Part shown: positions 1,608 to 14,650 of the stretch, one piece after another
Numbering within the stretch: position 1 is the stretch's first letter
Layout: the number at the start of each line of letters is the position of its first letter
DNA from: Longimicrobiales bacterium
Lineage (GTDB): Bacteria; Gemmatimonadota; Gemmatimonadetes; Longimicrobiales; Gaopeijiaceae
Length of the DNA stretch: 64,000 nucleotides
NCBI GenBank assembly: GCA_965116905.1
Contig: OZ220732.1
Span: 192,001-256,000, forward strand
Reading direction: 5' to 3'
Program-made: the position numbers and the translations under genes
Notes under the pieces: model-generated
The model's database searches: none
The model's input: only the letters and a program-made list of their open reading frames with translations
Told to the model about the DNA's origin: nothing

Positions 1608-3371
1608 ATGACCCCGACACCCACCGCATCGCCTGCTGCCGGCCCCACCGTCCGCTACCAGCCCGACGAGACGCCGCCGCCCGGGCTCGCGGCAGGCGTG
1701 GGACTGCAGCTGGCGGTGCTCAACATCGCCGCCGTGATGCTGATCCCGATGGTCGTGATGCGGGCTGCCGGGATGTCGGACACCTACCTGGCATGGGCCG
1801 TGCTCGCCTCGGTGACCGTGTGCGGCCTGACGACGGTGATCCAGGCGTTTCGCGCCGGCCGCATCGGCACCGGACACGTGATGGTCATGGGCACCTCCGG
1901 GGCGTTCATCCCGGCCTCGATCATGGCACTGGTCGAGGGCGGCCCCGCCCTGCTGGCCACCCTTGTCGTGGTCTCGGCGCTGGTCCCGCTGGTGCTCTCG
2001 TGGCGACTGTCCCTGTTCCAGCGGATCCTGACCCCCGCCGTCTCCGGGACCGTGATCATGCTCATCCCGGTCACGGTGCTGCCGTTCATCTCCGGCCTCC
2101 TCTCCGGGACCCAGGAGGGCGCAAGCGCAACCGGTGCGCCGCTCAGCTTCCTGGTGACCGTCATCGTCATCGGCGGCCTGGCCCTGAAGGCCACCGGCCC
2201 CCTGAAGCTCTGGGCACCCGTCATCGGCGTGGTCGCAGGCTCGGTGATCGCGGCCCAACACGGCCTCTATGACCTTCAGCGCGTCGGCGCGGCCGCGTGG
2301 ATCGACCTCCCCAGGCCCAGTCCGCCCGGCCTCGACCTACGCCTCGGCCCCGCCTTCTGGACGCTTCTCCCCTCCTTCCTGCTCGTGGCCGTGATCGCCG
2401 CCGTTCGCACGATGAGCAGCGCGGTGGCGGTTCAGCGCGTGTCGTGGCGCCGGAAGGACCGGGCGATCGACTTCCGCGCCGTTCAGGGCGCGGTGGCGGT
2501 GGACGGCGTGGGTAATCTTCTCGCCGGGCTGGCCGGGACCGTCCCGGGCAGCGCCACCACCACCAGCGTCCCGCTGACACAGCTCACCGGCGTGGCCGCC
2601 CGGGCGGTCGGGGTCGTCGCCGGCGCGGCGTTCATCGCGCTGGCGTTTCTCCCAAAGGCGTTCGCGGCCATCCTCGCCATCCCGGACCCGGTCTTCGCCG
2701 GCTATCTCGTCATCCTGCTCGCGATGCTCTTTGCGATCGGCATGAAGATCGTCCTGCAGGACGGGCTCGGCTATCGCGACGGCCTGGTCGTCGGCATCGC
2801 CTTCCTGACCGGCGTGAGCCTGCAATACGGCGTGATCTTCCCGGAACACGTCTCGGGATTCGCGGGCGGCCTGCTCGCGAACGGCATGAACGCGGGGGGC
2901 TTCGCCGCAATCCTCATGACCCTGTTCCTGCGAGCCACGGCTCCACGCCGCAGCCGGATCGAAACCTCGGCCGACCTGTCGGAACTGGAGGCGGTCAGGG
3001 GGTTTCTGAGCGACTTCGCGGCCGAGAGCGGGTGGGGCCCGGAAATGGCCGACCGGCTCGCGGCCGCGACGGAGGAGGCGCTGCTCACGCTCGGCGAAGG
3101 GGCCGCGGGCGCCGCGGAGACCCGGCAGGACGGTCGGCGGCGACTGCTGATCGTGGCTCGCCGGGAAGCGGACAACGCGGTTCTCGACCTCCATGTCGCG
3201 CCCGTCGGCGAGAACCTCCAGGACAGGGTCGCCCTGCTCGCCGAGGTGGAGGACAAGGCGCTGGTCGAGCGAGAGGTCTCTCTGCGCCTCCTACGCCACC
3301 TGGCGTCGTCCGTGCGGCATCGACAGTACCACGACACGGACATCGTGACGGTGCGCGTGGAGGCCCGATGA
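1608..3371 (+). CDS. NCS2 (xanthine/uracil/vitamin C) permease with a C-terminal soluble RsbW/HATPase-like domain (SupE-like)
   Basis: Many TM segments, N-terminal RYQPDE..P motif, MGTSGAF. Hydrophilic C-tail with RLAAATEEALLTL. Start placed at ATG 1608 (uncertain). Confidence 0.8.
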   Translation: MTPTPTASPAAGPTVRYQPDETPPPGLAAGVGLQLAVLNIAAVMLIPMVVMRAAGMSDTYLAWAVLASVTVCGLTTVIQAFRAGRIGTGHVMVMGTSGAFIPASIMALVEGGPALLATLVVVSALVPLVLSWRLSLFQRILTPAVSGTVIMLIPVTVLPFISGLLSGTQEGASATGAPLSFLVTVIVIGGLALKATGPLKLWAPVIGVVAGSVIAAQHGLYDLQRVGAAAWIDLPRPSPPGLDLRLGPAFWTLLPSFLLVAVIAAVRTMSSAVAVQRVSWRRKDRAIDFRAVQGAVAVDGVGNLLAGLAGTVPGSATTTSVPLTQLTGVAARAVGVVAGAAFIALAFLPKAFAAILAIPDPVFAGYLVILLAMLFAIGMKIVLQDGLGYRDGLVVGIAFLTGVSLQYGVIFPEHVSGFAGGLLANGMNAGGFAAILMTLFLRATAPRRSRIETSADLSELEAVRGFLSDFAAESGWGPEMADRLAAATEEALLTLGEGAAGAAETRQDGRRRLLIVARREADNAVLDLHVAPVGENLQDRVALLAEVEDKALVEREVSLRLLRHLASSVRHRQYHDTDIVTVRVEAR

Positions 3372-5581
3372 CCTGCACTCCGATGCACACCCTCAGACGG
3401 CGCATTCCCATCCGCAGACGGCGCATTCCCGTCCGCAGACGGCCCGTTCCCGTCCTCGGGCGCATCGTTCCCATCCTGGCTCTCGCCGCGGCCGCCTGCG
3501 GGGGTGAGGCAGCGCCTCCCGTGCCGGCGTCGGTGACGGTCGTCCCCGGCGCCCTCACCTTCGCTTCGCTGGCCGACACCGCCCGCCTCACCGCGACCGT
3601 GCGCGACGAGAACGGCGAAGTCATGCCGGCCGCCACCATCACGTGGCTCTCCCAGGACGCGGAAGTGGCCCGAATCTCCCCCTCCGGGAGCACCCCACCC
3701 GAGGGCGCCCCCTCCGTGCTGGTCACCTCCGTCGCGGACGGCAGCACGAGAATCACCGCTACCGCGGGCGGCGCGAGCGGCACCGCAACCGTGCAGGTCG
3801 AACAGGTCGCCACGACCGTCGAAGTCGCCGCGCCCATCGACTCCCTCATGGTCGGCGACTCCGTGCAGATGACCGCCCACGCAACCGATGCGGTCGGATC
3901 GGAAGTGGTCGGCGCCCTCTTCTCCTGGGAATCGAGCGACCCCGCGGTCGCCACCGTCGACGACGATGGCTGGGTGCGTGCCCGCGCCCCCGGATCGGCC
4001 GAAATCGCCGCCATTCTCGGCGAACTCCGTGCGTCGGCGGCCCTGACCCTGTTGCCGCTGCCCGAACGCACGGTTCTCCAGGCGATCTACGAGGCAGGCG
4101 GTGGAGCACTGTGGAAGGACAACACCAACTGGCTCACCGACGCTCCGCTCGCCGAATGGTTCGGGGTCCACCTGAACGAAGACGGCCAGGTCGTCCACTT
4201 GCTGCTCACCGACAACGGGCTCATCGGCACGATACCGCCCGAAATCGCCAGCCTCAGCCACCTGGAGTCCCTGCACATTGGACTCAACGACCTGACCGGG
4301 CCCCTGCCGCCCGAAATCGCCCACCTCAAGCGGCTCAAGTCCCTCGAGCTGACCTACAACGCGTTCGACGGCCCCATCCCGCCCGAAATCGGCAGCCTCG
4401 AGTCCCTGGAATGGCTCGGCGCGTTCGGCAACGCGTTCACCGGCGAAATCCCCCCCGAAATCGGCGACCTCGGCAAACTGGAGTCGCTGGACCTCTGCTA
4501 CAATCGCCTCACCGGCCCCATCCCGCCCGAGATCGGCAACCTCGCCAGCCTGAAGCGACTCGCGCTCTGCGGCATCGACGCCAACCCCACCGAGGGCAAC
4601 CGCCTGAGCGGCGAAATCCCCCCGGAAATCGGCAAGCTCACCAACCTCAGCCTGCTGAGCCTGGGGGCCAACCGCCTCACCGGCCCCATCCCGCCCGAGA
4701 TCGGCAACCTGGCCGCGCTCGACTCGCTTCTGCTCTACAGCAATGAGCTGACCGCCATCCCGCCCGAGATCGGCAACCTCGAGAGCCTCCAATGGCTCGT
4801 GCTCTACGGGAACCGCCTGACCGGCTCCATTCCGCCCGAAATCGGCAAATTACACAAATTGCGTATTTTACACATCGGCTGGGGATGGGCGAGCGGCCGC
4901 AACCTGCTCACCGGCTCCATTCCGCCGGAAATCGGCAACCTCACCGGCCTCCAGCACGTGGACCTGGGCGGCAATCAGCTCTCCGGGCCCATCCCGCCGG
5001 AGATCGGCAACCTCCGCTCGCTGACCAACCTCGAACTGGGCTCGAACGCGCTCGATGGGCCCATCCCGGCCGAGATCGGCAACCTGACCCGCCTGACCTC
5101 GTTCGCCGCCTGCCCGAACAGCCTGGAGGGACGGATCCCGCCCGAGTTCGGCAAGCTCGGACGGCTGACCCAGCTCTTCCTCTGCAGCAACGAGTTCTCC
5201 GGTCCGATGCCCCCGGAGCTCGGCGAACTGCACAGTCTCCGCCAGCTCATCGTAGTCGGCAACCGCCTGACCTCGGCGGTCCCGGGGTCGATGGTCTCGC
5301 TCCGCCGCCTCCGCGAGTTCTACTGGCAGAACAACGACGGACTGTGCGTGCCGGTGCTCTCGGAATTCGACTCCTGGCTCGCCGGCATCCCCTCCCACCG
5401 CGGCGACCGCTGCGCTCCCGCATCGGCACAGGCGACCGAGTCGACAACGTCCGTCGGCCCTCTGCGCACGGGCGGCCCTCTGCGCACGGGCGACCCTCTG
5501 CGCACGGGTCCGCGTATGCATGTGACCAGAGAGCGGCCCCTGTCGCCCCGCCCCGTCGCGGACCTTCTCCGCCGCCGGTAG
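3368..5581 (+). CDS. Lipoprotein with Ig-like (Big_2) domains and about 15-16 plant-type leucine-rich repeats
   Basis: ATGA overlap with the permease stop; lipobox LAAAACG; two Ig-like segments (ITWLSQDAEVARI, FSWESSDPAVATVD); LRR N-cap (NWLTDAPLAEWFGV); repeats of LxxLxxLxLxxNxLTGxIPPEIG. Confidence 0.9.
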   Translation: MTCTPMHTLRRRIPIRRRRIPVRRRPVPVLGRIVPILALAAAACGGEAAPPVPASVTVVPGALTFASLADTARLTATVRDENGEVMPAATITWLSQDAEVARISPSGSTPPEGAPSVLVTSVADGSTRITATAGGASGTATVQVEQVATTVEVAAPIDSLMVGDSVQMTAHATDAVGSEVVGALFSWESSDPAVATVDDDGWVRARAPGSAEIAAILGELRASAALTLLPLPERTVLQAIYEAGGGALWKDNTNWLTDAPLAEWFGVHLNEDGQVVHLLLTDNGLIGTIPPEIASLSHLESLHIGLNDLTGPLPPEIAHLKRLKSLELTYNAFDGPIPPEIGSLESLEWLGAFGNAFTGEIPPEIGDLGKLESLDLCYNRLTGPIPPEIGNLASLKRLALCGIDANPTEGNRLSGEIPPEIGKLTNLSLLSLGANRLTGPIPPEIGNLAALDSLLLYSNELTAIPPEIGNLESLQWLVLYGNRLTGSIPPEIGKLHKLRILHIGWGWASGRNLLTGSIPPEIGNLTGLQHVDLGGNQLSGPIPPEIGNLRSLTNLELGSNALDGPIPAEIGNLTRLTSFAACPNSLEGRIPPEFGKLGRLTQLFLCSNEFSGPMPPELGELHSLRQLIVVGNRLTSAVPGSMVSLRRLREFYWQNNDGLCVPVLSEFDSWLAGIPSHRGDRCAPASAQATESTTSVGPLRTGGPLRTGDPLRTGPRMHVTRERPLSPRPVADLLRRR
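3394..3456. repeat. Imperfect 21-bp tandem repeat x3 in the LRR signal region
   Basis: cagacggcgcattcccatccg / cagacggcgcattcccgtccg / cagacggcccgttcccgtcct. Confidence 0.9.
5456..5509. repeat. Imperfect 18-bp tandem repeat x3 in the LRR C-terminal tail
   Basis: ggccctctgcgcacgggc x2 plus gaccctctgcgcacgggt (GPLRTG x3). Confidence 0.9.
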
Positions 5582-5634: not shown

Positions 5635-6408
5635 ATGGCTGCCTTGCCCAGCACCTTGCCCAGCACCTTGCCGACCGCCACTGCGTTCGCGGCTGCCATC
5701 GCGGCTGCCCTCCTCGTCTCCTTTTCCACCGCATTTGCGCAGACCGACCCCGACGACGACATCTCGTTCCACCTGGTGGGCCAGGTCGTCGACAATGCCA
5801 CAGGCGCACCGGTGCCCGGCGCCCGGGTGTCCGTCGCGGCGTCCGAGTGGATGTCCGTGACCAACTCGGAAGGGCGCTTCATCCTGCATGGCCTGCGCCC
5901 CGGACCGCACCGGGTGTCGGTCGAGCAGCTGGGCTACCACACGCTTGTCGCCCAGGTGCATGCCGGGACGGAGACAGCTCCGCTGCGGCTCGGGATCGAA
6001 CCGGACCCCATCGTTCTCGAGGGCCTCGAGGTGGTCGGCCGGCGTTTCGAGAGACGGCGGCGCGCCACAGGCCTGAGGGTCAGCGAGTTCGGCCAGCACG
6101 ACCTGGCGGCCAGCAGCAGTCGCTCGGCGGCCGAAATGCTGGAGGAGCGCATTCCGGTCCAGCGGACCCGGTGCGACGATGGGGCGTTCGAGTGCGTTTT
6201 CTCACGCGGCGGACGGATGCGTCCCACCGTCTGCATCGACGAAACCCCGACGATCGATGGCTGGAACGCCCTCGCGGCGTACCGTCCCCAGGATTTCCAT
6301 ATGATCGAGGTCTACGGGCGAGCCAGTCTGGTCCGCGCCTACACCCACCATTTCATGGAGCGCGCTGCCCGGATCCGGTTTCTGCCGACTGCGGTGGGCT
6401 CCTGCTAG
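5635..6408 (+). CDS. Exported protein with a carboxypeptidase-regulatory-like domain and a plug-like C-terminal region (no beta-barrel)
   Basis: Signal peptide ending AFA-Q; GQVVDNATGAPVPGARV...TNSEGRF...LGY; DPIVLEGLEVV; C-terminal CIDE...FHMIEVY. Confidence 0.7.
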   Translation: MAALPSTLPSTLPTATAFAAAIAAALLVSFSTAFAQTDPDDDISFHLVGQVVDNATGAPVPGARVSVAASEWMSVTNSEGRFILHGLRPGPHRVSVEQLGYHTLVAQVHAGTETAPLRLGIEPDPIVLEGLEVVGRRFERRRRATGLRVSEFGQHDLAASSSRSAAEMLEERIPVQRTRCDDGAFECVFSRGGRMRPTVCIDETPTIDGWNALAAYRPQDFHMIEVYGRASLVRAYTHHFMERAARIRFLPTAVGSC

Positions 6409-7693
6409 CGCCGCGCATCTCCGCCGCGCGGGCGTGCGCCTCGAGCCCTTCCATGCGGGCGAGCGCGGCCGCGTCCCTAGCCAGCAGGTCGCGCTCCGGG
6501 CCCGGTTCCAGCCGGAGCCAGGTGGGCCGCCGAAGGAAGGACAGCACGGACAGGCCGCCGGTGAATCGCGCCGTGCCTCCCGTCGGGAGCGTGTGGTTGG
6601 GCCCTGCGCCGTAGTCGCCGAAGACTTCCGCGACGGATTCGTCGACGAACAGCGACCCGAATGTGGTCAGCGTCTCCGCCCACGCTTCGGCGCGGCTCCC
6701 GTGAAGCTGCAGGTGTTCGGGTGCGAGATCCTCGCAGCTGCGCAGGGCGGCGGCTTCAGGGGCCACCACGGCAAAGCCGTTCTTGAGGGCGGCGATCGCC
6801 GTCTCGGCGGTGGGCAGGCCGGCCAGTTGCCGGTCGAGCTCGCGTTCCACGCCCCCGACCAGGTTCGCGGACGTCGTGATGAGGACCGGTAGCGCGGCGG
6901 AGTCGTGCTCGGCCTGCGCCAGCAGGTCGGCCGCGATAAGGGCGGGGTCGCCTTCCTCGTCCGAGAGGACGGCCAGCTCGGAGGGGCCGGCCAGCAGGTC
7001 GATGCCGACCACGCCCGACAGGAGGAGCTTCGCGGCGGTCACCCACTGGTTTCCGGGCCCGACGACGACATCGCATCGCGGCACGGGGCCGACGCCGTAC
7101 GCCATGGCCGCCACGGCCTGCGCCCCTCCCACGCACAGCAGCCCATCCACCCCCGCCACCACCCCCGCCGCCATCACCTCGCGGGACGGTCTCGGCGAGG
7201 CCAGCCACACCTCGTGCACCCCGGCCACCCTGGCCGTCACGGCCGTCATGAGCACGGACGACGGCAGGGGGAACCGCCCGCCCGGGGCGTAGCACCCCGC
7301 CACCCGCACGGGCACCACGCGGTCGCCGGCCGTCCCCCCCTCGACCGGCACGGACACGGGCGCGGCCGCCGCCATCTGGGCGCGCGCGAAGTGCTCGATC
7401 CGGCCGGCGGCGCGCTTGAGCACGTCGCGATCCGCCCGCGGCAGTGAATCCAGGGCAGCCTCCATCTCGCGGGGAGTCCTGACCAGCACCCCGCCGGCTT
7501 CGATACCGTCCCACCGCTCCGCGAATTCGCGCAGCGCCTCCTCTCCACCCTTGCGCACCGCTTCGACGATCTCCAGCACGGCCGGGATGATCCCGGGCGG
7601 CACGGCAGGCTGGCGGGCGCGGCCCACGTCGGCTGCGGCAACTCGTCTCAAGCGCACGCGCGGCGGCCCATCAGCCGCCCGATCGTCACGCAC
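6353..7693 (-). CDS. hisD: Histidinol dehydrogenase
   Basis: GCYAPGG..PLPSSVLM, GGAQAVAA, VVGPGN, AGPSE, DLLAQAEHD, APEHL, GDYGAGPNHTLPTGG. GTG start at 7693 overlaps the upstream stop. Confidence 0.95.
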   Translation of the reverse strand: MRDDRAADGPPRVRLRRVAAADVGRARQPAVPPGIIPAVLEIVEAVRKGGEEALREFAERWDGIEAGGVLVRTPREMEAALDSLPRADRDVLKRAAGRIEHFARAQMAAAAPVSVPVEGGTAGDRVVPVRVAGCYAPGGRFPLPSSVLMTAVTARVAGVHEVWLASPRPSREVMAAGVVAGVDGLLCVGGAQAVAAMAYGVGPVPRCDVVVGPGNQWVTAAKLLLSGVVGIDLLAGPSELAVLSDEEGDPALIAADLLAQAEHDSAALPVLITTSANLVGGVERELDRQLAGLPTAETAIAALKNGFAVVAPEAAALRSCEDLAPEHLQLHGSRAEAWAETLTTFGSLFVDESVAEVFGDYGAGPNHTLPTGGTARFTGGLSVLSFLRRPTWLRLEPGPERDLLARDAAALARMEGLEAHARAAEMRGASRSPPQSAETGSGQRAP

Positions 7694-8981
7694 GGCCCGG
7701 CCGCTTCGGCTCCGACGCCACCCTGCGCCTGACCGTGAGGCTTCTCCGGTCCAGCTCCCGCTCCACATCGGCCAGACTGGCCCCGGCGCGCTCCAGCGCC
7801 ACCGTCAGGAAGTACATCACGTCCGCGGCCTCCTCGACGACGCGGTCGGCGACGACCTCCCCGCTCGGCTCGGCACCCGCCGCCTCCCCCAGTTCGCCGG
7901 CCTCTTCCACGAGCTTGCCGCGCAGGAACGCACCGTCCTCGAGCAGCCGCCCCGTCAGCGACCCGGGCACCGCCCGGGCCCGCCGCGACTTCACGGTCCG
8001 CTCCAGCTTCCGGAGCCCCCGCGCCGGACCGAAGCACGTCCAGTCGCCCTGGTGGCAGAACCCGCCGCCCGCCTGCCGCACGACGAACCGCAGGGCATCG
8101 CGGTCGCAGTCGGCCTCGATGCCGAGCAGCGCCTGGGTCGCGCCCGAGGTGGCACCCTTGCGCCACAGCCCGCGCGTGCGCGAATGATACACGCCAATGC
8201 CCTCGTCGATCGCGGTGCGGATGCTCTCCGGACCGGACCAGACGAGGCCCAGCGCGCCACCGCGCTCGTCGCACACGACCGTTGGCCAGAGCCCGTCGGC
8301 CCGCTCGCTGCGCAGCGGGGCCGTGAACGCCTCGGCCAGTCCGAGGTGGCCGCGGTACAGCGCCATCCCCACCTGGGCATCGGCGCCCGAACGGTCCAGC
8401 CACGCAATCTCCTCCGCGGTAGTGATGCCTCCCGCGACGGTCAGGCGTGAGGTGCCCGCGGCTTCCACCAAGGGCGCAATCTGGTCCCGGGGAAAGCCGC
8501 CCTCCTTGCCCTCGCCCTCGACGAAGGTCACGAGGAAGCTCCCCGCGAGGCCGCTCAGTTCGCGCATGCCCTCGTAGACGGTGCGGCCGGTGCGCCTGGT
8601 CCACCCCTTGACCACGACCTCGCCCTCCCACGCGTCCAGTGCGGCCACGACCCGGTCGCGCGGCAGCCCTTCCAGCACCTCCGGTACGGCCGCCGTGCCC
8701 AGCACCACCTTCACGGCGCCCCGATCGAGCCAATCGAGCGCCGCATCGCGGTCGCGGATGCCGCCCCCCACCCGGCACGGCGCGATCGCGCACAGTTCTT
8801 CCATGACGGCCGCGTTGGACCCCCGCCCCAGCGCGGCATCGAGATCCACCACCGCGACCTCGCCCACCCGGCCGAAGCGCTCGGCGAGCGGCCGCGGATC
8901 GCCTGCTTCCAGCACCTTGCGGCGGCCCTGCACCAACTGCACGGCCTGACCGTCCATGAGGTCGATCGAGGGAATGATCAC
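7686..8981 (-). CDS. hisAIE: HisA-HisI-HisE fusion (ProFAR isomerase / PR-AMP cyclohydrolase / PR-ATP pyrophosphatase)
   Basis: N-terminal IIPSIDLMDGQAVQL, VVDLDAA, VGGGIR (HisA); WRKGATSG, DCDRDAL, FCH...CF (HisI); KLVEEAGEL, EEAADVMYF (HisE). GTGA overlap with the hisF stop. Confidence 0.9.
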   Translation of the reverse strand: MIIPSIDLMDGQAVQLVQGRRKVLEAGDPRPLAERFGRVGEVAVVDLDAALGRGSNAAVMEELCAIAPCRVGGGIRDRDAALDWLDRGAVKVVLGTAAVPEVLEGLPRDRVVAALDAWEGEVVVKGWTRRTGRTVYEGMRELSGLAGSFLVTFVEGEGKEGGFPRDQIAPLVEAAGTSRLTVAGGITTAEEIAWLDRSGADAQVGMALYRGHLGLAEAFTAPLRSERADGLWPTVVCDERGGALGLVWSGPESIRTAIDEGIGVYHSRTRGLWRKGATSGATQALLGIEADCDRDALRFVVRQAGGGFCHQGDWTCFGPARGLRKLERTVKSRRARAVPGSLTGRLLEDGAFLRGKLVEEAGELGEAAGAEPSGEVVADRVVEEAADVMYFLTVALERAGASLADVERELDRRSLTVRRRVASEPKRPGRA

Positions 8982-9856
8982 AATGCGTCCTCCCGGGCCG
9001 ATGCGCTTTCCCCGATCCGGCCCGCGGCCCGCGCCAACCCGCGCGCTTCGGAGTACCCGGGCCGCACCGACACCCCGAGCCCGGCCAGCGCCCGCTTGAC
9101 CTCCTCCACCGTCCAGTTCCGCTGGTGGAAGATCGACGCCGCCAGCACGGCATCGGCCCCGGCGCGAACCGCGTCGGCCATGTGTTCGGGAGAATCGGCG
9201 CCCCCCGACGCAACGATCGGCACATGCACGGCGGAACGCACCGCGCCCAGCAGGGTGAGCTCGTAGCCGCTGCGCGTGCCGTCGCGGTCGATGCTGGTCA
9301 GCAGAATCTCGCCGGCTCCGCGCTCGACCGCCTCCCGCGCCCACGCGACCGCGTCCCGCGCGACCGGTCTGGTCCCGGAAAGCACGACCACCTCGTAGCC
9401 GCTGTCCCCGCCACCCGTCCCACGTGGCCCTCCCGACTGGCCCGCTCCACTCCCGCGCCGCAGCGCGTCCAGCGAGACCACCACGCACTGCGACCCGAAC
9501 CGCCCGGCCAGGTCGGTCAGCAGCGCGGGGCGCCGGAGCGCGGCGGTGTTCACGGCCACCTTGTCGGCGCCCGCCTCCAGGAGCGCCGCCGCGTCCTCGA
9601 TCCCGCCGATCCCGCCCCCGACGGTCACCGGCACCGACAGCCGGGCCCGCACGGCGGCCACCGTGTCGAGACGGGTGCCGCGTCCTTCGGGGGTGGCCGT
9701 CACGTCCAGCACGACGACCTCGTCCGCTCCCTGCTCCTCGTAGGCCAGGGACAGCGCGGCCGGGTCGCCCTGATCCTCCAGACCCTGGAACCGGACCCCC
9801 TTCACGACCCGTCCGTCTCGGACATCGAGGCAGGGGATGATGCGAACGGGGAGCAC
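8978..9856 (-). CDS. hisF: Imidazole glycerol phosphate synthase, cyclase subunit
   Basis: RIIPCLDVRDGRVVKGV, GADKVAVN, GAGEILLTSIDRDGT, ASGG, LAASIFH. Confidence 0.97.
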   Translation of the reverse strand: MLPVRIIPCLDVRDGRVVKGVRFQGLEDQGDPAALSLAYEEQGADEVVVLDVTATPEGRGTRLDTVAAVRARLSVPVTVGGGIGGIEDAAALLEAGADKVAVNTAALRRPALLTDLAGRFGSQCVVVSLDALRRGSGAGQSGGPRGTGGGDSGYEVVVLSGTRPVARDAVAWAREAVERGAGEILLTSIDRDGTRSGYELTLLGAVRSAVHVPIVASGGADSPEHMADAVRAGADAVLAASIFHQRNWTVEEVKRALAGLGVSVRPGYSEARGLARAAGRIGESASAREDAL

Positions 9857-9859
9857 GGG

Positions 9860-10474
9860 TCAGGCCTCCAGCCAGCGCGTCAGGAGCGCCTTGCCGTAGT
9901 CGCCCGACAGTTCGGGGTGGAACTGGCAGCCGACCACGGGGCCGCGCTCCACCGCCGCCAGAAAGCGGCCGGCGTACTCGCACCAGACGGGCAGCCAGCC
10001 GTCCGGGGCGGTCGCGAGTCGATAGGAGTTGGCGAAGTAGGCGTAGCCGCGCGGCACGATCTCGCACCGGTCGTCCGGGGTCACCAGGTTCCACCCCATC
10101 TGCGGGACTCGCCAGCCTTCCTCCCCGCTCTCGTAGCCGTCCACCACCCCGTCGAACACGCCGAGACCGGCGACGCCCGGCGCCTCCTCGCTGCCGGTCG
10201 CCATCAACTGCATGCCGAGGCAGATGCCGAGGGTGGGCCGGCCCCGCTCGATGCGTTCCCGCAGGGCATCCTCCAGACCGTGCGCCGCAATGGCGCGCTG
10301 GGCCGCGGCGAAGGCGCCCACCCCCGGAAGCACCAGCCGTTCTGCCGCGGCCACATCGCCGGCGTCGTCGGTCGCGCGAACGCGGCATCCCAGGCGCTCG
10401 AATCCCGTCAGGACCGAGGCCAGGTTGGCGGTGCTGGTGCGAACGACGGTGACCGCAGGGTGCCGTGGCGTCAC
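9860..10474 (-). CDS. hisH: Imidazole glycerol phosphate synthase, glutaminase subunit
   Basis: LVLPGVGAF, LGICLGMQL, VPQMGWN, GCQFHPELS. Confidence 0.96.
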   Translation of the reverse strand: MTPRHPAVTVVRTSTANLASVLTGFERLGCRVRATDDAGDVAAAERLVLPGVGAFAAAQRAIAAHGLEDALRERIERGRPTLGICLGMQLMATGSEEAPGVAGLGVFDGVVDGYESGEEGWRVPQMGWNLVTPDDRCEIVPRGYAYFANSYRLATAPDGWLPVWCEYAGRFLAAVERGPVVGCQFHPELSGDYGKALLTRWLEA

Positions 10475-11121
10475 AGGACCCCCTTCGTGGACGGCACATC
10501 GTCACCGCCGGCCGGCGCCAGCGCGGCCTTCAACGCCAGCGCCACAGCCTTGAAGCACGCCTCGATCCGGTGGTGGTCGTTGGCGCCCCGGATCACATCG
10601 ACATGCAGCGTCAGGCCGGCGGTCTGGGCGAAGGACTGGAAGAAGTGCGGCACCATCTCGCACGACAGCGCGCCCACGCGATCCCGCCGGAGATCGAGTT
10701 CGCCGGCGAAGAACGGGCGGCCCGAGACGTCGACGACGGCGCGCGCAAGCGCCTCGTCCAGGGGCGCATACGCGTGCCCGAAGCGCACGATGCCGCCGCG
10801 GCGATCGCCCAGCGCCCGCGCCACAGCCTGACCCAGCGCCAGTCCGGTGTCTTCGACGGTATGGTGGTCGTCGACCTCCAGGTCGCCGTCGCAGGTCAGT
10901 TCCAGCCCCCACCCCGCGTGGAAGGCCAGCGCGTGCAACATGTGATCGAAGAAGCCGATCCCGGTCTCCACCCGGACGGTGGCAGGCCCCGCCTCACGCC
11001 CGTCCAGGTCGAGGCGCACCTCGACCCTGGTCTCGCCGGTCTCGCGTCGGACGCGCGCAACTCGCGCCCGTTCGCTTGCGGAAACCGCTCCGCCGTCTCC
11101 GCCTCTGCCTGAGTCACCCAT
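10471..11121 (-). CDS. hisB: Imidazoleglycerol-phosphate dehydratase (monofunctional)
   Basis: RETGET, TGIGFFDHML, DDHHTVED, PLDEAL, NDHHRIEA, VPSTKGVL. Confidence 0.96.
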   Translation of the reverse strand: MGDSGRGGDGGAVSASERARVARVRRETGETRVEVRLDLDGREAGPATVRVETGIGFFDHMLHALAFHAGWGLELTCDGDLEVDDHHTVEDTGLALGQAVARALGDRRGGIVRFGHAYAPLDEALARAVVDVSGRPFFAGELDLRRDRVGALSCEMVPHFFQSFAQTAGLTLHVDVIRGANDHHRIEACFKAVALALKAALAPAGGDDVPSTKGVL

Positions 11122-12793
11122 CGAACAATCCTCCGAAATCGCTGTCAGCCTTGACGACACGGGCGGCCCCCGCGTCCTCGAGCGCGGTCCACAGGGCCGC
11201 CGCCGCCTCCTCGGGCTGTCCCGGCGGCACGACCCCCACCGGCACCACCCCCGCCCCCACCGCCGCCCTCACGTCGTCGGGGGTGTCGCCCAGCATCCAC
11301 GCGGTCCGCGCGTCGAGCTGCTCCAGCGCGCCTCGCACGGGTGCCGGATCGGGCTTGAGCGGCGCGTCTTCACGGCAGACCACCGCACTGAAACATCCCC
11401 GCACCCCCTGCTCACGCAGGAAGCGCAGGGCGTCGGAGCGCGGCCTCCCGGTCACGATGCCCAGCCTGTACGACCGCGCGAGCCGTTCGAGCAGCTCACG
11501 CGACGGGATCAGCGTCTCGTGGCGGCGCAGCCCCGGCGCATCGTCGGTGCCCTGGTAGATCTCCTCGAAGCGCGCCGTCACCTCTTTCAGCGAGGCGTCA
11601 ACCCCCGCGCCGGCCAGCACCCCGTGCGTCACCGCCCAGTCGTCGTTGGCGCGCCCGGCGGCCTTCACGGCGCTGATCACGTCGTGTCCGGCCTCCACGC
11701 CAAACGACGCGCACGTCCGCACGATCGTCTCCCGGTACGACCGCCGCACGTCGGCCAGCACGCCGTCCATGTCGAAGAGCAGCGCGTCCGGCCGCTCCAG
11801 GCACCCCAGCGCCTGCTCCACACGGCGGAACTCCGCGTCGTCCCGCGGCACCGTGATCCGCACGTACTCCGGCAGGTGCGTGAAGTAGCGCACCAGCACC
11901 CCCTGCGCGGCCATGCCACGCAGGATCCAGCGCGCGTCCGGAAACGACGAGAACACGAAGTTCGTCTGCGACGGCTGCGGTACCCCGCCGATCCCCCGGA
12001 TCACCTCGGCCAGCCGTTTCCGCCGCTCCCGCACGTAGTCGACGAATCCCCGCATCTCGTCCACGCCGTTCTCCAGCCGGTCCAGCGCGATCGCGATCGA
12101 CGGTCCGGTCAGCGCGTACGGTCCCCCGTAACCGCGCAGCACGTCGATCCGCTCCTTCGCGCCGACCGCGAAGCCCACACGCAGCCCCGCCAGCCCCCAC
12201 GACTTCGACATCGTGCGGATCATCACCACGCGCGGGATCTCGAGGAGTGCCGCGGTGTGATCCTCGTCCGCGAACTCCGCATATGCCGAGTCCACCAGGA
12301 GCACCACTTCGGGCGGCAGCGCGTCGGCCAGCCGCAGCAACTCGCGTGTCGTGAACGCCCGGCCCGTCGGGTTGTCCGGCGTCAGCACCGCCACCACACC
12401 CGTCGTCTCGTTCACCTCGGACAGAATCTCGTCGTGGGGCAGCGTCCCCCACTCGTACTCGACCGGAACAAGCCGCCCCTTCGCCATGCGCGCGCACGCC
12501 GGAATCATCTCGAAGGTGGGTGTGGGGAAGACCATCTCCCGGTCTGGACCCAGAAACGCCCGGAAAACCCGGTCGATGGCGTCGTCCCCGCCGGTCGTGA
12601 CCAGCACGTTGGCGGGATCGGTGCCGAGGTACGCCGCGTAGGCCTCCTCCAGCGGCCTGGGGTCCGCGTACTTGCGCAGAATCCCGGGCCCGATCCGTTC
12701 CAGCACGTCGAAGCACTCCCGCGGAGGCGGTTCGCCCTCGTTCATGCTGAGGTCGATGACGTCCCGCATGGCTCCCTTCATGGCCCCGCTCAT
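11114..12793 (-). CDS. hisC: Histidinol-phosphate aminotransferase fused to a C-terminal HAD-family phosphatase
   Basis: PDNPTG, VDSAYAEF, RTMSKSWGLAGLRVG (PLP Lys), followed in frame by LLFDMDGVLAD, IVTGRP, KPDP, MLGDTPDD (HAD motifs I-IV). Confidence 0.92.
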   Translation of the reverse strand: MSGAMKGAMRDVIDLSMNEGEPPPRECFDVLERIGPGILRKYADPRPLEEAYAAYLGTDPANVLVTTGGDDAIDRVFRAFLGPDREMVFPTPTFEMIPACARMAKGRLVPVEYEWGTLPHDEILSEVNETTGVVAVLTPDNPTGRAFTTRELLRLADALPPEVVLLVDSAYAEFADEDHTAALLEIPRVVMIRTMSKSWGLAGLRVGFAVGAKERIDVLRGYGGPYALTGPSIAIALDRLENGVDEMRGFVDYVRERRKRLAEVIRGIGGVPQPSQTNFVFSSFPDARWILRGMAAQGVLVRYFTHLPEYVRITVPRDDAEFRRVEQALGCLERPDALLFDMDGVLADVRRSYRETIVRTCASFGVEAGHDVISAVKAAGRANDDWAVTHGVLAGAGVDASLKEVTARFEEIYQGTDDAPGLRRHETLIPSRELLERLARSYRLGIVTGRPRSDALRFLREQGVRGCFSAVVCREDAPLKPDPAPVRGALEQLDARTAWMLGDTPDDVRAAVGAGVVPVGVVPPGQPEEAAAALWTALEDAGAARVVKADSDFGGLFDG

Positions 12794-13665
12794 GGCACGA
12801 TCTGCTGCGGTTCCGACACGACCAGATCGGTGCCGCCCCGCGCCTTCACCTCGAGCAGGAGCGCCGGCAGCGCCGTCCTGGGCACCGCCGCGCGCACCGC
12901 ATACCCGCTCTCGCCGTGCAGCCGCGACACCGTGGGCTCGCGCATGCAGGGCAGAACCGAGATGACCCGCTCGAAGTCCTCTTCCGACACGTTCAGCTCG
13001 AGCATCACCCGCCGCCGCGCCTCCAGAACCGACTTGAGGAGGAGGACGAGGTCGTCGATCCGGGCCCGGCTCGCCGGGTCGTCAAGGGCTGCGGGATTGG
13101 CGTAGAGACGGGTCGAGGAGAGCATCAGCGTATCCGCGACGACAAGGCCGTTTCCGCGCAGTGTCGCTCCCGTTGCGGTGTTGTCGACGATGAGGTCCGC
13201 GTCCTCGGGCGGGAACACCTCGGTGGCCCCGTAGGACCGCACCACATCGGCCTCGAAGGGCTGGTCCGCCGCCCACTCCCTCACCAGCCGCACGTACTCG
13301 GTCGCCACGACCAGGCGGCGGCCGGCCGGAAACGCTCCGCCGTCGAGCAGCGACTCGGGCGCCGCCGCGACGACCTTCACCGGGTCGAGCGCGGTGTCGA
13401 GCAGTTCGACCAGGTCGGCGTCCAGCTCGGCCACCCAGTCCGCGCCGGCGAAACCGATGTCGCGGGACCCGGCATCGAGCATCTTCACCACGTTCTGCGG
13501 CTTGAGCAGCTTGGCCTCGAAGCCGGGCCACGAGAGCACAGGCCGATAGTTGCGCGACCCCAGGTGGACGTCGATCCCGGCCTCGGCCAGCAGCGCGAAG
13601 ACCCCGCCCTGCATGTGCCCCTTGGGCAGGCCGATGTGGATCGGGGGGCAAGCTGCAGCACTCAT
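12790..13665 (-). CDS. hisG: ATP phosphoribosyltransferase, long form
   Basis: IGLPKG, DIGFAGADW, VATEY, GATEVFPPEDADLIVD..ATGATLRGNGL, C-terminal regulatory domain (PTVS). AGGAG upstream of ATG 13665. Confidence 0.95.
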   Translation of the reverse strand: MSAAACPPIHIGLPKGHMQGGVFALLAEAGIDVHLGSRNYRPVLSWPGFEAKLLKPQNVVKMLDAGSRDIGFAGADWVAELDADLVELLDTALDPVKVVAAAPESLLDGGAFPAGRRLVVATEYVRLVREWAADQPFEADVVRSYGATEVFPPEDADLIVDNTATGATLRGNGLVVADTLMLSSTRLYANPAALDDPASRARIDDLVLLLKSVLEARRRVMLELNVSEEDFERVISVLPCMREPTVSRLHGESGYAVRAAVPRTALPALLLEVKARGGTDLVVSEPQQIVP

Positions 13666-13714
13666 TTCCGGTTTTCGTCTCCTCGCCGGCCTGCCCCGGA
13701 ACCGGCCGGCGCAC

Positions 13715-13748
13715 AAAAAAGCGCCGACCCCCCCGAGGAAGCCGGCGT
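13715..13748 (-). terminator. his attenuator (intrinsic terminator)
   Basis: Minus-strand RNA CGCCGGCUUCC-UCGG-GGGGGUCGGCG-C-UUUUUU: an 11-bp stem including G-U pairs plus a U6 tract, between the leader ORF and hisG. Confidence 0.85.
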
Positions 13749-13781
13749 TTGGGTATCCCGTGCTTTCGTACGGCTACACCG

Positions 13782-13847
13782 TCACGCGGCCGCCTCTCCC
13801 AGGTGGCCGTGATGATGATGCGTGGCGTAGCAGACACAGGTATTCAT
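13782..13847 (-). CDS. hisL: his operon leader peptide MNTCVCYATHHHHGHLGEAAA
   Basis: Reverse complement: atg aat acc tgt gtc tgc tac gcc acg cat cat cat cac ggc cac ctg gga gag gcg gcc gcg tga. Five His codons among six consecutive codons, directly upstream of the terminator and hisG. Confidence 0.88.
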   Translation of the reverse strand: MNTCVCYATHHHHGHLGEAAA

Positions 13848-13856
13848 AGGGCCCTA

Positions 13857-13886
13857 ATTGTCACAAGGACCGCCGCTGGATGTCAA
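13857..13886 (-). promoter_or_regulatory. Sigma70-type promoter of the his operon
   Basis: TTGACA, 18-nt spacer ending TGT, then GACAAT (extended -10-like), 9 nt before the leader ATG. Confidence 0.65.
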
Positions 13887-13896
13887 GCGGACCCAC

Positions 13897-13955
13897 CGGA
13901 GCCCGCGCCGGATACGGAGCCCGCGCGTCGGATACGGGGCCGCACCGGATACGGG
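13897..13955. repeat. Imperfect 17-20-bp tandem repeat x3 between the his promoter and the TA module
   Basis: cggagcccgcgccggata / cggagcccgcgcgtcggata / cggggccgcaccggata / cggg. Confidence 0.8.
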
Positions 13956-14006
13956 CAGCCGCGTCGCCCCGGGTCGAGGGCCGCGTCCTGATCCCGGCCG
14001 CGTCCC

Positions 14007-14036
14007 TTGATCGTATACTATATAATTATATACATT
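14007..14036 (+). promoter_or_regulatory. AT-rich TA promoter with a palindromic operator
   Basis: TTGATC-18-TACATT; perfect 14-bp palindrome TATATAATTATATA at 14019-14032 in the spacer. Confidence 0.6.
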
Positions 14037-14072
14037 AGATTATGGATACTTTATGTTGAATACCTCTCTCCC

Positions 14073-14327
14073 ATGAAACCAATCCAGGTCACGTTCGACG
14101 AGACGCTGCTTGCCAGGCTGGACCGGCATCCCATGGTCCGTGAGCGCGGGCGGTCCGCGGTCCTGCGCAAGGCCGCCGCGGACTTCCTGAAGCGCCAGGA
14201 GGCCGAGGAGATCGACCGCCTGTACCGTGCCGGCTACGCCAACGCCGCCAGGGGCGACTGCGAACTGAGGGACCGGCCCGGAGAGCTCGAGGACTGGGCC
14301 GCCCAGGGAGTGTGGCCCGGAGAATGA
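14073..14327 (+). CDS. Ribbon-helix-helix (CopG-like) antitoxin
   Basis: MKPIQVTFDETLLARLD...RSAVLRKA RHH pattern; ATGA overlap with the toxin. Confidence 0.85.
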   Translation: MKPIQVTFDETLLARLDRHPMVRERGRSAVLRKAAADFLKRQEAEEIDRLYRAGYANAARGDCELRDRPGELEDWAAQGVWPGE

Positions 14328-14650
14328 ACGGCCGGCCACGAAGAGGCGAAGTCTGGCTGTATGCCTTCAAACCGCCGGACAAGCGGCGCCCTGTAGTCGT
14401 ATTGACACGTGAATCCGTGCTTCCGCTTCTCCGCACGGCCATGGTGGCGCCGGTGACCTCGACGATCCGCGGTCTGCCCAGCGAGGTGCGGGTGGGGGTC
14501 GCCGAGGGTCTCAAGCGCGACTCAGTGGTGAACCTCGACTGGGTGCAGACGGTCGAGCAGCGGCGCCTGAAGCACTACATGGGGTCTCTCGACGACGACA
14601 GGATGGCTCAGGTCTGCCGCGCACTCGCGGTCGCCACGGGTTGCGACTAG
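14324..14650 (+). CDS. mazF: MazF/PemK-family endoribonuclease toxin
   Basis: RRGEVW, KRRPVVVLT, VAPVTST, SVVNLD..QTV. Confidence 0.92.
   Translation: MNGRPRRGEVWLYAFKPPDKRRPVVVLTRESVLPLLRTAMVAPVTSTIRGLPSEVRVGVAEGLKRDSVVNLDWVQTVEQRRLKHYMGSLDDDRMAQVCRALAVATGCD

Follow-up and report, generated by a model that had tools for sequence, protein, structure and literature searches.

The histidine (his) operon in this 64,000-nt stretch of Longimicrobiales bacterium DNA (the window hereafter, whose own coordinates are used throughout) is preceded by a real and conserved leader element immediately upstream of hisG. We propose that this element is very probably a ribosome-mediated transcription attenuator that reads histidine codons, that its antiterminator is the helix between positions 13796–13784 and 13748–13735, and that its short open reading frame (ORF) likely begins as a leaderless message; sequence comparison and modelled RNA folding point to this reading. 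As in other attenuators of this class, a short His-rich ORF lies ahead of a his biosynthetic operon, an intrinsic terminator (with termination predicted from the sequence) lies between that ORF and hisG, and in computed folds a ribosome on the His codons releases an antiterminator that is incompatible with the terminator. A previous sequence-only reading had called a His leader peptide and attenuator at this site. Every feature that it listed lies where it placed it, and its main proposal is borne out by conservation, frame retention, folding and covariation; the specific antiterminator that it named is not, and it missed both the promoter upstream of the ATG and the cross-phylum family described below.

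Layout of the locus

Promoter, leader and operon form one array on the minus strand that runs from 13886 to 6353, in the order TTGACA, extended −10, ORF, hairpin, U6, hisG. Its parts are as follows.

13881–13886, minus strand: −35 box TTGACA; the promoter prediction matches the consensus at 10 of 12 positions, with an 18-nt spacer
13857–13865, minus strand: extended −10 element TG-n-GACAAT, its 3′ edge 9 nt ahead of the leader ATG
13782–13847, minus strand: leader ORF MNTCVCYATHHHHGHLGEAAA, 21 aa; translation likely begins at the predicted transcript 5′ end or no more than about 3 nt from it
13803–13820, minus strand: sensor His codons 10–13 and 15 (CAU CAU CAU CAC GGC CAC), doubling as the protector helix 5′ strand (region 1)
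13779–13815, minus strand: protector helix 1:2, pairing the His codons with the ORF end and the bases past its stop; 96.7% of cells paired in the genus, without compensatory change
13784–13796, minus strand: region 2, antiterminator 5′ strand GAGG-C-GGCCGCGU, codons 18–22; GAGG, GG and CG invariant in 27/27 leaders
13752–13780, minus strand: inner hairpin with a GAAA (GNRA) loop, inside the antiterminator and compatible with both states; P 0.97 when the antiterminator forms
13735–13748, minus strand: region 3, ACGCCGGCUUCCUC, terminator 5′ arm and antiterminator 3′ strand
13715–13747, minus strand: intrinsic terminator-like hairpin (13747–13722; 11 bp, 8 GC pairs, −19.4 kcal/mol) and U6 (13720–13715)
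13704–13729, minus strand: post-terminator hairpin, pairing the terminator 3′ arm with bases past the U tract; in 14 of the 19 genus leaders examined
13679–13684, minus strand: Shine-Dalgarno-like GAGGAG of hisG, 13 nt ahead of its ATG
12790–13665, minus strand: hisG, first gene of the operon; TIGR00070 and TIGR03455 above cut-off
6353–12793, minus strand: hisC-HAD, hisB, hisH, hisF, hisA-hisIE and hisD, identified by family models

The promoter at 13886–13857 is predicted to be of the sigma-70 type. Taken singly, neither it nor the terminator occurs beyond chance (one promoter found against 0.2 expected, one terminator against 0.5), and the minimum free energy of the leader as a whole does not go beyond that of its shuffles (z −0.99). 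The combination is another matter: when the 4.2-Mb source genome (G000) was scanned for the joint occurrence of a −35 box, an intrinsic terminator and a short ORF containing an amino-acid run, this was the only site to emerge.

The his operon downstream is complete, in the order hisG-C-B-H-F-A/IE-D. Besides hisG, the models for hisB, hisH, hisF, hisD and the phosphoribosyl-ATP diphosphatase domain score above cut-off, and those for hisC, hisA and HAD score below it with E ≤ 1e-32. Two of the genes are fusions on the minus strand, hisC-HAD at 11114–12793 and hisA-hisIE at 7686–8990; the HAD domain of the former may be the histidinol-phosphatase. The nearest named relatives of hisG (76–94% identity) are labelled Gemmatimonadota or Longimicrobiales, save one titled Chloroflexota. 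That record is a 3.5-kb contig (L031) whose hisG is 94% identical and whose leader is near-identical to ours; it is possibly mis-binned.

The surroundings of the array hold further features. Between the promoter and the divergent genes, at 13895–13960, three short imperfect direct repeats around CCGGATACGG were seen by eye. Behind an AT-rich stretch at about 14010–14060, a small divergent gene pair on the plus strand (14073–14650) encodes an 84-aa ORF without a family match and a 112-aa MazF-like ORF (E 0.003); it looks like a type II toxin-antitoxin pair. At 3032–5581 on the plus strand lies a long ORF in which Ig-like and leucine-rich repeats were recognised by eye, and which we take to be of a kind common in sponge symbionts.

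Conservation of the leader and its histidine codons

Is the leader ORF maintained as a coding sequence? In an initial set of 30 hisG loci from the genus, 27 have the element ahead of the gene, and in all 27 aligned leaders the ORF has 20–24 codons, of which 2–6 are His. From ATG to His run the frame is kept in every one of the 27: indels ahead of the run add or remove entire codons. The run's last CAC never varies. The only frameshifting indel among them (L029) sits 3′ of the run; in L029 and in L112 a one-base insertion past the His run shifts the frame so that the stop comes three codons further on, with the helices intact. Both synonymous codons are used: the 128 leader His codons of the 27 leaders comprise 62 CAU and 66 CAC, a share of CAU well above the 17% in the genes of the source genome, which has one tRNA-His gene. 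The sequence-only reading had described a 21-codon ORF with a His run, which is indeed present at 13847–13782, and had given non-conservation of run and hairpin in relatives as a refuting outcome; the run is kept in 27/27 aligned genus leaders, and the terminator helix is paired in 97.3% of cells. Searched against curated NCBIfam models, the leader peptide matched no family at E ≤ 0.01, a weak test for a peptide of 21 aa.

The element follows hisG through the genus. A covariance model built from 29 leaders, five of them from the genus, matches at E < 1e-7 adjoining hisG in 40 of 53 genus genomes, those five among the 40; hisG itself is present in 45 of the 53. The leader therefore accompanies hisG in 40 of 45 genomes that have the gene, against a strong match in none of the eight that lack it. 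The five genomes with hisG and no leader are G011 (locus L149), G072 (L150), G023 (L151), G008 (L152) and G016 (L022); in G011 and G072 another long ORF stops about 70 nt ahead of the hisG match. A second full copy of promoter, His leader ORF and terminator lies between hisC and hisB in one genome (L111, G007:C13:261455-261610, minus strand), and its sequence differs from that of the copy next to hisG.

Competing helices in the leader RNA

Three mutually exclusive helices and an inner hairpin make up the predicted switch. The terminator hairpin begins 34 bases past the leader ORF, and its U6 ends 49 nt ahead of the hisG ATG at 13665, in keeping with the earlier description of a GC stem and U6 about 50 nt before hisG. 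Genus members examined have 6–8 U within 8 nt past a hairpin of 16–22 kcal/mol. The terminator stem shows one pair changed on both sides in the genus alignment. Its two arms behave differently: the 5′ arm CCGGCUUCCUC is invariant in 27/27 leaders, whereas the 3′ arm varies, which indicates that the 5′ arm has a second partner.

We propose that this partner is region 2, whose genus consensus is GAGG-N-GGYCGYGU. The helix 13796–13784 : 13748–13735 has 12 bp and a stability of −17.0 kcal/mol on its own; together with the inner hairpin it reaches −30.4 kcal/mol, where the terminator combined with that hairpin gives −29.2. Across the genus, pairing is kept in 323 of 324 cells, and there is one compensatory swap of C-G to U-A. 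Eight of its 12 pairs never vary, however, so that covariation within the genus is thin. On these grounds and the folding results below, the identification of this helix as the antiterminator is supported.

Region 2 also takes part in the protector helix 1:2. The hairpin that had been called in the 3′ half of the ORF (GGCCACCU with AGGCGGCC) does pair, as the top of this longer helix. In the post-terminator hairpin the U6 lies in the loop, so that it could form only after read-through; it is absent from L023–L029.

Folding with a modelled ribosome

The position of the ribosome was modelled by holding the bases beneath it unpaired. In the 113-nt nascent RNA of the source genome, the probability of the antiterminator is 0.01 without a ribosome, rises to 0.62–0.95 with His10–His15 in the A site (0.95 at His11–Gly14), and is 0.00 with the ribosome at codon 18 onward. 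For the full leader, the terminator has an advantage of 9.1 kcal/mol without a ribosome and of 7.6 with one at the stop codon, and a disadvantage of 3.2 with one at His11. None of 150 leader shuffles shows as large a switch, although the best-His value alone is reached by eight of the 150, which counts against the model. The dip in termination stays within codons 10–16 for ribosome footprints of 8–16 nt. Folding of alternative structures, which the sequence-only reading had put forward as a check, thus yields three ribosome-dependent states, with termination least favoured when the ribosome is on the His codons.

The same pattern is found among relatives. We compared 52 leaders, 19 from the genus and 33 others, which were chosen for their His ORFs and hairpins and are related rather than independent. 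Their mean terminator preference is +6.3 kcal/mol without a ribosome, −1.6 at the best His codon (a minimum over several codons) and +10.3 at the stop. Relative to the best His codon, the terminator is more favoured by over 2 kcal/mol at the stop in all 52 leaders and without a ribosome in 49. The least-terminating ribosome position is a His codon in 36 of the 52 and falls within one codon of one in 47, where His makes up 27% of the codons scanned. When pairing of the terminator 5′ arm with anything upstream is scored instead, a cruder measure, just 29 of the 52 leaders behave as expected; for the source genome this measure gave 0.60 at the stop by way of a weak alternative helix, which counts against the model. 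Equilibrium folding of longer RNA is also less favourable: at 126–132 nt the antiterminator wins only for His11 and partly for His12, and the terminator wins for His10, 13 and 15. Consequently the model needs the antiterminator to be trapped kinetically, during RNA synthesis.

We therefore envisage the following sequence of events. Transcription would start within about 3 nt of the AUG, and ribosomes would load on the leader in the manner of a leaderless mRNA. With no ribosome, or with one in the first codons, helix 1:2 would tie the His codons to the ORF end, and the terminator (3:4) would form. A ribosome stalled on His10–13 would cover region 1, leaving region 2 (13796–13784) to pair with region 3 (13748–13735) around the inner GNRA hairpin; the antiterminator would then occupy the terminator 5′ arm before the 3′ arm is made, and polymerase would enter the his operon. 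A ribosome past codon 17 or at the stop would cover region 2, and the terminator would form. The signal would be charged tRNA-His, and the peptide itself is likely a by-product. In public RNA data, two runs of one study contain the stretch, in the form of contigs alone; the best of these covers the leader and continues into the divergent genes, and no clustering of ends is listed.

A likely leaderless start

The leader ORF is likely leaderless, with a predicted transcript start no more than about 3 nt from the AUG, because it begins 9 nt after the −10 box and no Shine-Dalgarno sequence for it is found within the predicted transcript. Given a spacer of 17–18 nt behind the −35 box, 9 nt is the gap that remains in the source genome. 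With the spacing of 4–9 nt between −10 element and start described for Streptomyces, where leaderless is defined as 0–3 nt (PMC8079986), a gap of 9 nt would leave a 5′ untranslated region of about 0–3 nt, too short for a Shine-Dalgarno sequence. Promoter geometry in the genus would fit such a predicted start: the −35 TTGACA lies 31–34 nt from the leader ATG in 26 of 27 leaders by script and 32 nt in the 27th, read by eye, and the −10 element lies 8–10 nt from the ATG, again without a Shine-Dalgarno sequence. The source genome appears to use such starts elsewhere. Among its 2479 genes, a crude prediction, the motif TANNNT ends 5, 6, 7 and 9 nt before the ATG in 21, 33, 27 and 20 cases, respectively, against 2–9 genes for each of the other gaps, and nearly all of the leaderless-type genes are without a Shine-Dalgarno sequence. 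The modal gap is 6 nt, however, and the 9 nt of the leader exceeds it, which counts against the proposal. Strict sites with TTGAC plus a −10 element number 53 in the genome, too sparse for judging leaderless starts.

Alternative explanations

Two alternatives keep the leader as a regulator and alter the partner of its strands. The sequence-only reading had proposed CGGUGU (13781–13776) with ACGCCG (13748–13743) as the antiterminator, and these segments, whether acting alone or as a back-up for a stall at His15, are complementary: pairing is retained in 94.4% of the cells of the genus alignment, with two G-C pairs that never vary. As an antiterminator, however, this pairing fares poorly. Its probability is at most 0.05 at every ribosome position, its stability is −6.4 kcal/mol against −17.0 for the longer helix, and nine of 162 cells are broken with no compensatory change, a result below all 500 shuffles; moreover, helix 1:2 and the inner hairpin draw on these bases too, which can account for their conservation. 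We reject it as the main antiterminator and consider even a subsidiary role highly unlikely. A comparably small chance attaches to translational attenuation in the style of the mycobacterial polycysteine leaders, in which the leader would gate the hisG ribosome-binding site, through CUUCCUC complementary to GAGGAG, with little termination. Invariance of the anti-Shine-Dalgarno-like CUUCCUC would fit such a role, as would the long rod that extends to the Shine-Dalgarno edge in the full read-through RNA and the U tracts of many members of other phyla, which are weak; many members outside the genus have only 3–5 U within 8 nt past the hairpin, which also counts against our main reading. Yet the pairing of CUUCCUC with the Shine-Dalgarno sequence has a probability of 0.00 in 7/7 ribosome states, so that an anti-Shine-Dalgarno role is not supported; the Shine-Dalgarno sequence is 0.51–0.73 unpaired with no trend, the invariance of CUUCCUC is explained by its GAGG partner in region 2, and the genus members examined have the hairpins and U tracts given above.

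A further pair of alternatives departs from sensing by the His codons. The element could be a constitutive leaky terminator or a small RNA, its His codons a by-product of RNA pairing. The His codons do pair within helix 1:2, the leader is missing from five of 45 hisG-bearing genus genomes, and leaders of the Palauibacter type have only three spaced His codons. Against this stand the ATG, frame and His run kept in all 27 leaders with a near-even mixture of CAU and CAC, the recurrence of His runs in other phyla with different sequence, the finding of the element only before his genes, and the fall of the least-terminating ribosome position on His codons; we regard the by-product explanation as slightly less likely than either alternative above. 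The least likely is some other route, whether a T-box, a ligand-binding riboswitch, a HisR-type repressor, or Rho termination gated by leader translation. T-boxes and HisR do control his operons in other phyla (PMC9413887). However, Rfam T-box and His_leader models give no match at the site to E 10, and no Rfam family, T-boxes included, matches at gathering score in 12 loci; the TrpR/HisR family PF01371 has no match in the source genome (97% complete), with the control matching in 3 of 14 genomes; and a predicted intrinsic terminator with competing helices is present. The His-codon attenuator with the 12-bp antiterminator is thus the reading that we carry forward.

A family of leaders across phyla

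Outside the genus, the covariance model matches before hisG in 37 of 64 further hisG loci (L047–L110, 60–81% identity), 24 of these loci being training sequences of the model. The matching records are labelled Myxococcota, Planctomycetota, Actinomycetota, Acidobacteriota, Krumholzibacteriota, Eiseniibacteriota and Gemmatimonadota, labels from metagenome bins that may be wrong; the architecture thus appears ahead of hisG in about seven phylum-level lineages. The common core consists of the His run, a G-rich ORF end and a terminator arm CGCCG-R-YY. The ORF end and the terminator arm covary, for example GAACCGG/CCGGUUC in L069, GAGCCGG/CCGGCUC in L106, GGGUCGG/CCGACCC in L065 and ACGG/CCGU in L104.

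Covariation in relatives had been named as a check by the earlier reading, and it is seen across 23 anchored lineages as well as in the single swap within the genus. Of the 115 variable positions in these lineages, 85 pair, where permutations give 71.8 (p 5e-5); the swaps include C-G, U-A and A-U. Pairs were counted by an anchor script, the MAFFT cross-phylum alignment being one base out of register in region 2 for several rows; for two of the 25 rows it found no anchor, and in two genus rows it settled on a wrong triplet, an error that works against the outcome. Similarly, cognate duplexes in 25 lineages average −17.9 kcal/mol against −15.4 ± 0.5 for permuted ones, 2.5 stronger; a downstream control region also shows a cognate advantage of 1.1 kcal/mol (p 0.008), so that composition or kinship inflates this test.

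A draw of 150 genomes from the phylum gave 28 matches at E ≤ 0.01. All 14 matches outside the genus at E ≤ 1.1e-6 directly precede hisG with a His-containing ORF that begins 29–32 nt past a −35 box; of ten weaker loci examined, two lie before hisG with a His-containing ORF. The leader element was found before his genes only. In a genome of the same family, a weak match (L140, G186:C20:32927-33054; E 3e-4) has seven consecutive His, lies 28 nt past a −35 box, and precedes an unrelated hisG (30% identity) followed by hisD. The Palauibacter-type leaders (L054:1297-1359, L056, L062, L066, L124, L128 and L136) keep the RNA architecture with their three spaced His codons set among Phe and Tyr codons (e.g., HPFFGHYYYH); possibly these are dampened sensors, or sensors that also feel aromatic amino acids.

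The relationships of the hisG genes suggest horizontal spread: genus HisG is 60–68% identical to distant homologues, compared with 30–38% to the hisG products of two other families of its own order, and in a quick hisG tree with an unresolved backbone the Gemmatimonadota sequences fall in separate groups. On balance we lean, at somewhat better than even confidence, toward one homologous family of leaderless His attenuators common to Gemmatimonadota, Myxococcota, Planctomycetota, Actinomycetota (Acidimicrobiia), Krumholzibacteriota, Eiseniibacteriota and Acidobacteriota-labelled records. Its core would be the G-rich ORF end paired with the CGCCG-R-YY arm, and the self-contained cassette of promoter, ORF and switch would move between lineages with the his operon and could also give rise to a copy elsewhere, as in G007.

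Relation to known attenuators and significance

The closest functional analogue is hisL of E. coli and Salmonella, in which stalling at His codons favours an antiterminator over an intrinsic terminator (PMC3896937, PMC9413887). Both have a short His-rich ORF before hisG, and in ours, too, stalling is predicted to favour the antiterminator. In contrast to the seven consecutive His codons given for hisL, the leader described here has four plus one, is a compact 133 nt, carries its antiterminator 5′ strand inside the ORF and likely starts leaderless. It has no match to the hisL model RF00514 (His_leader): there are none at E ≤ 10 in the source genome (the control scored above cut-off in 1 of 14 genomes), none among the seven weak Rfam matches at the site, and none at gathering score in 12 loci. 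Likewise, the candidate His attenuators of the Bacillus cereus group, Peptostreptococcaceae/Lutispora and Erysipelotrichales, with 3–5 His codons, a terminator and an antiterminator, are unmatched by RF00514, and one likely horizontal transfer of operon and attenuator together is reported among them (Ashniev et al. 2022, PMC9413887). These Firmicutes candidates belong to a different phylum and are compared here by description rather than by sequence; the available text on them mentions no leaderless start.

Leaderless leader peptides are themselves known. Those of Streptomyces lividans trpL1, leuL2 and ilvL are followed by hairpins and a U-rich stretch (PMC8079986); their codons are those for Trp, Leu or branched-chain amino acids, His is represented in none of the eight listed, and the main text does not use the word histidine. 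The leaderless start of our element, by comparison, is a predicted one. Mycobacterial polycysteine sORFs are leaderless attenuators as well, in which ribosome stalling senses charged tRNA (Canestrari et al., 10.1101/834739). Ours resembles them as a short ORF with an amino-acid run and a leaderless start (here predicted), and differs in that the case dissected there frees a Shine-Dalgarno sequence for translation, whereas here intrinsic termination is predicted and no Shine-Dalgarno switch was found. PMC4833913 refers to a conference paper about His leader peptides of Actinobacteria. In a literature search confined mostly to freely available journals, no description was found of this RNA family or of His attenuation in this lineage. 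Vitreschak 2004 and Lopatovskaya 2010 are said to have predicted His attenuators in further phyla, e.g., Bacteroidota and Thermotogota. The mechanism, then, is textbook and leaderless attenuators are known from Streptomyces, so that no new mechanism is revealed; what appears new is the RNA family, which is without an Rfam entry.

Experiments have established his attenuation in enterobacteria, and predictions have added a few other groups; the finding extends it to phyla that have received little study, in the form of a compact RNA family. The base-pair-level model is testable with a handful of mutations, and an addition to Rfam would make unannotated leaders recognisable. A leaderless start needs no Shine-Dalgarno sequence and would make the switch portable between phyla. 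Finally, sequences of these bacteria turn up in sponge metagenome runs, and the leader suggests that these bacteria still tune histidine synthesis to supply.
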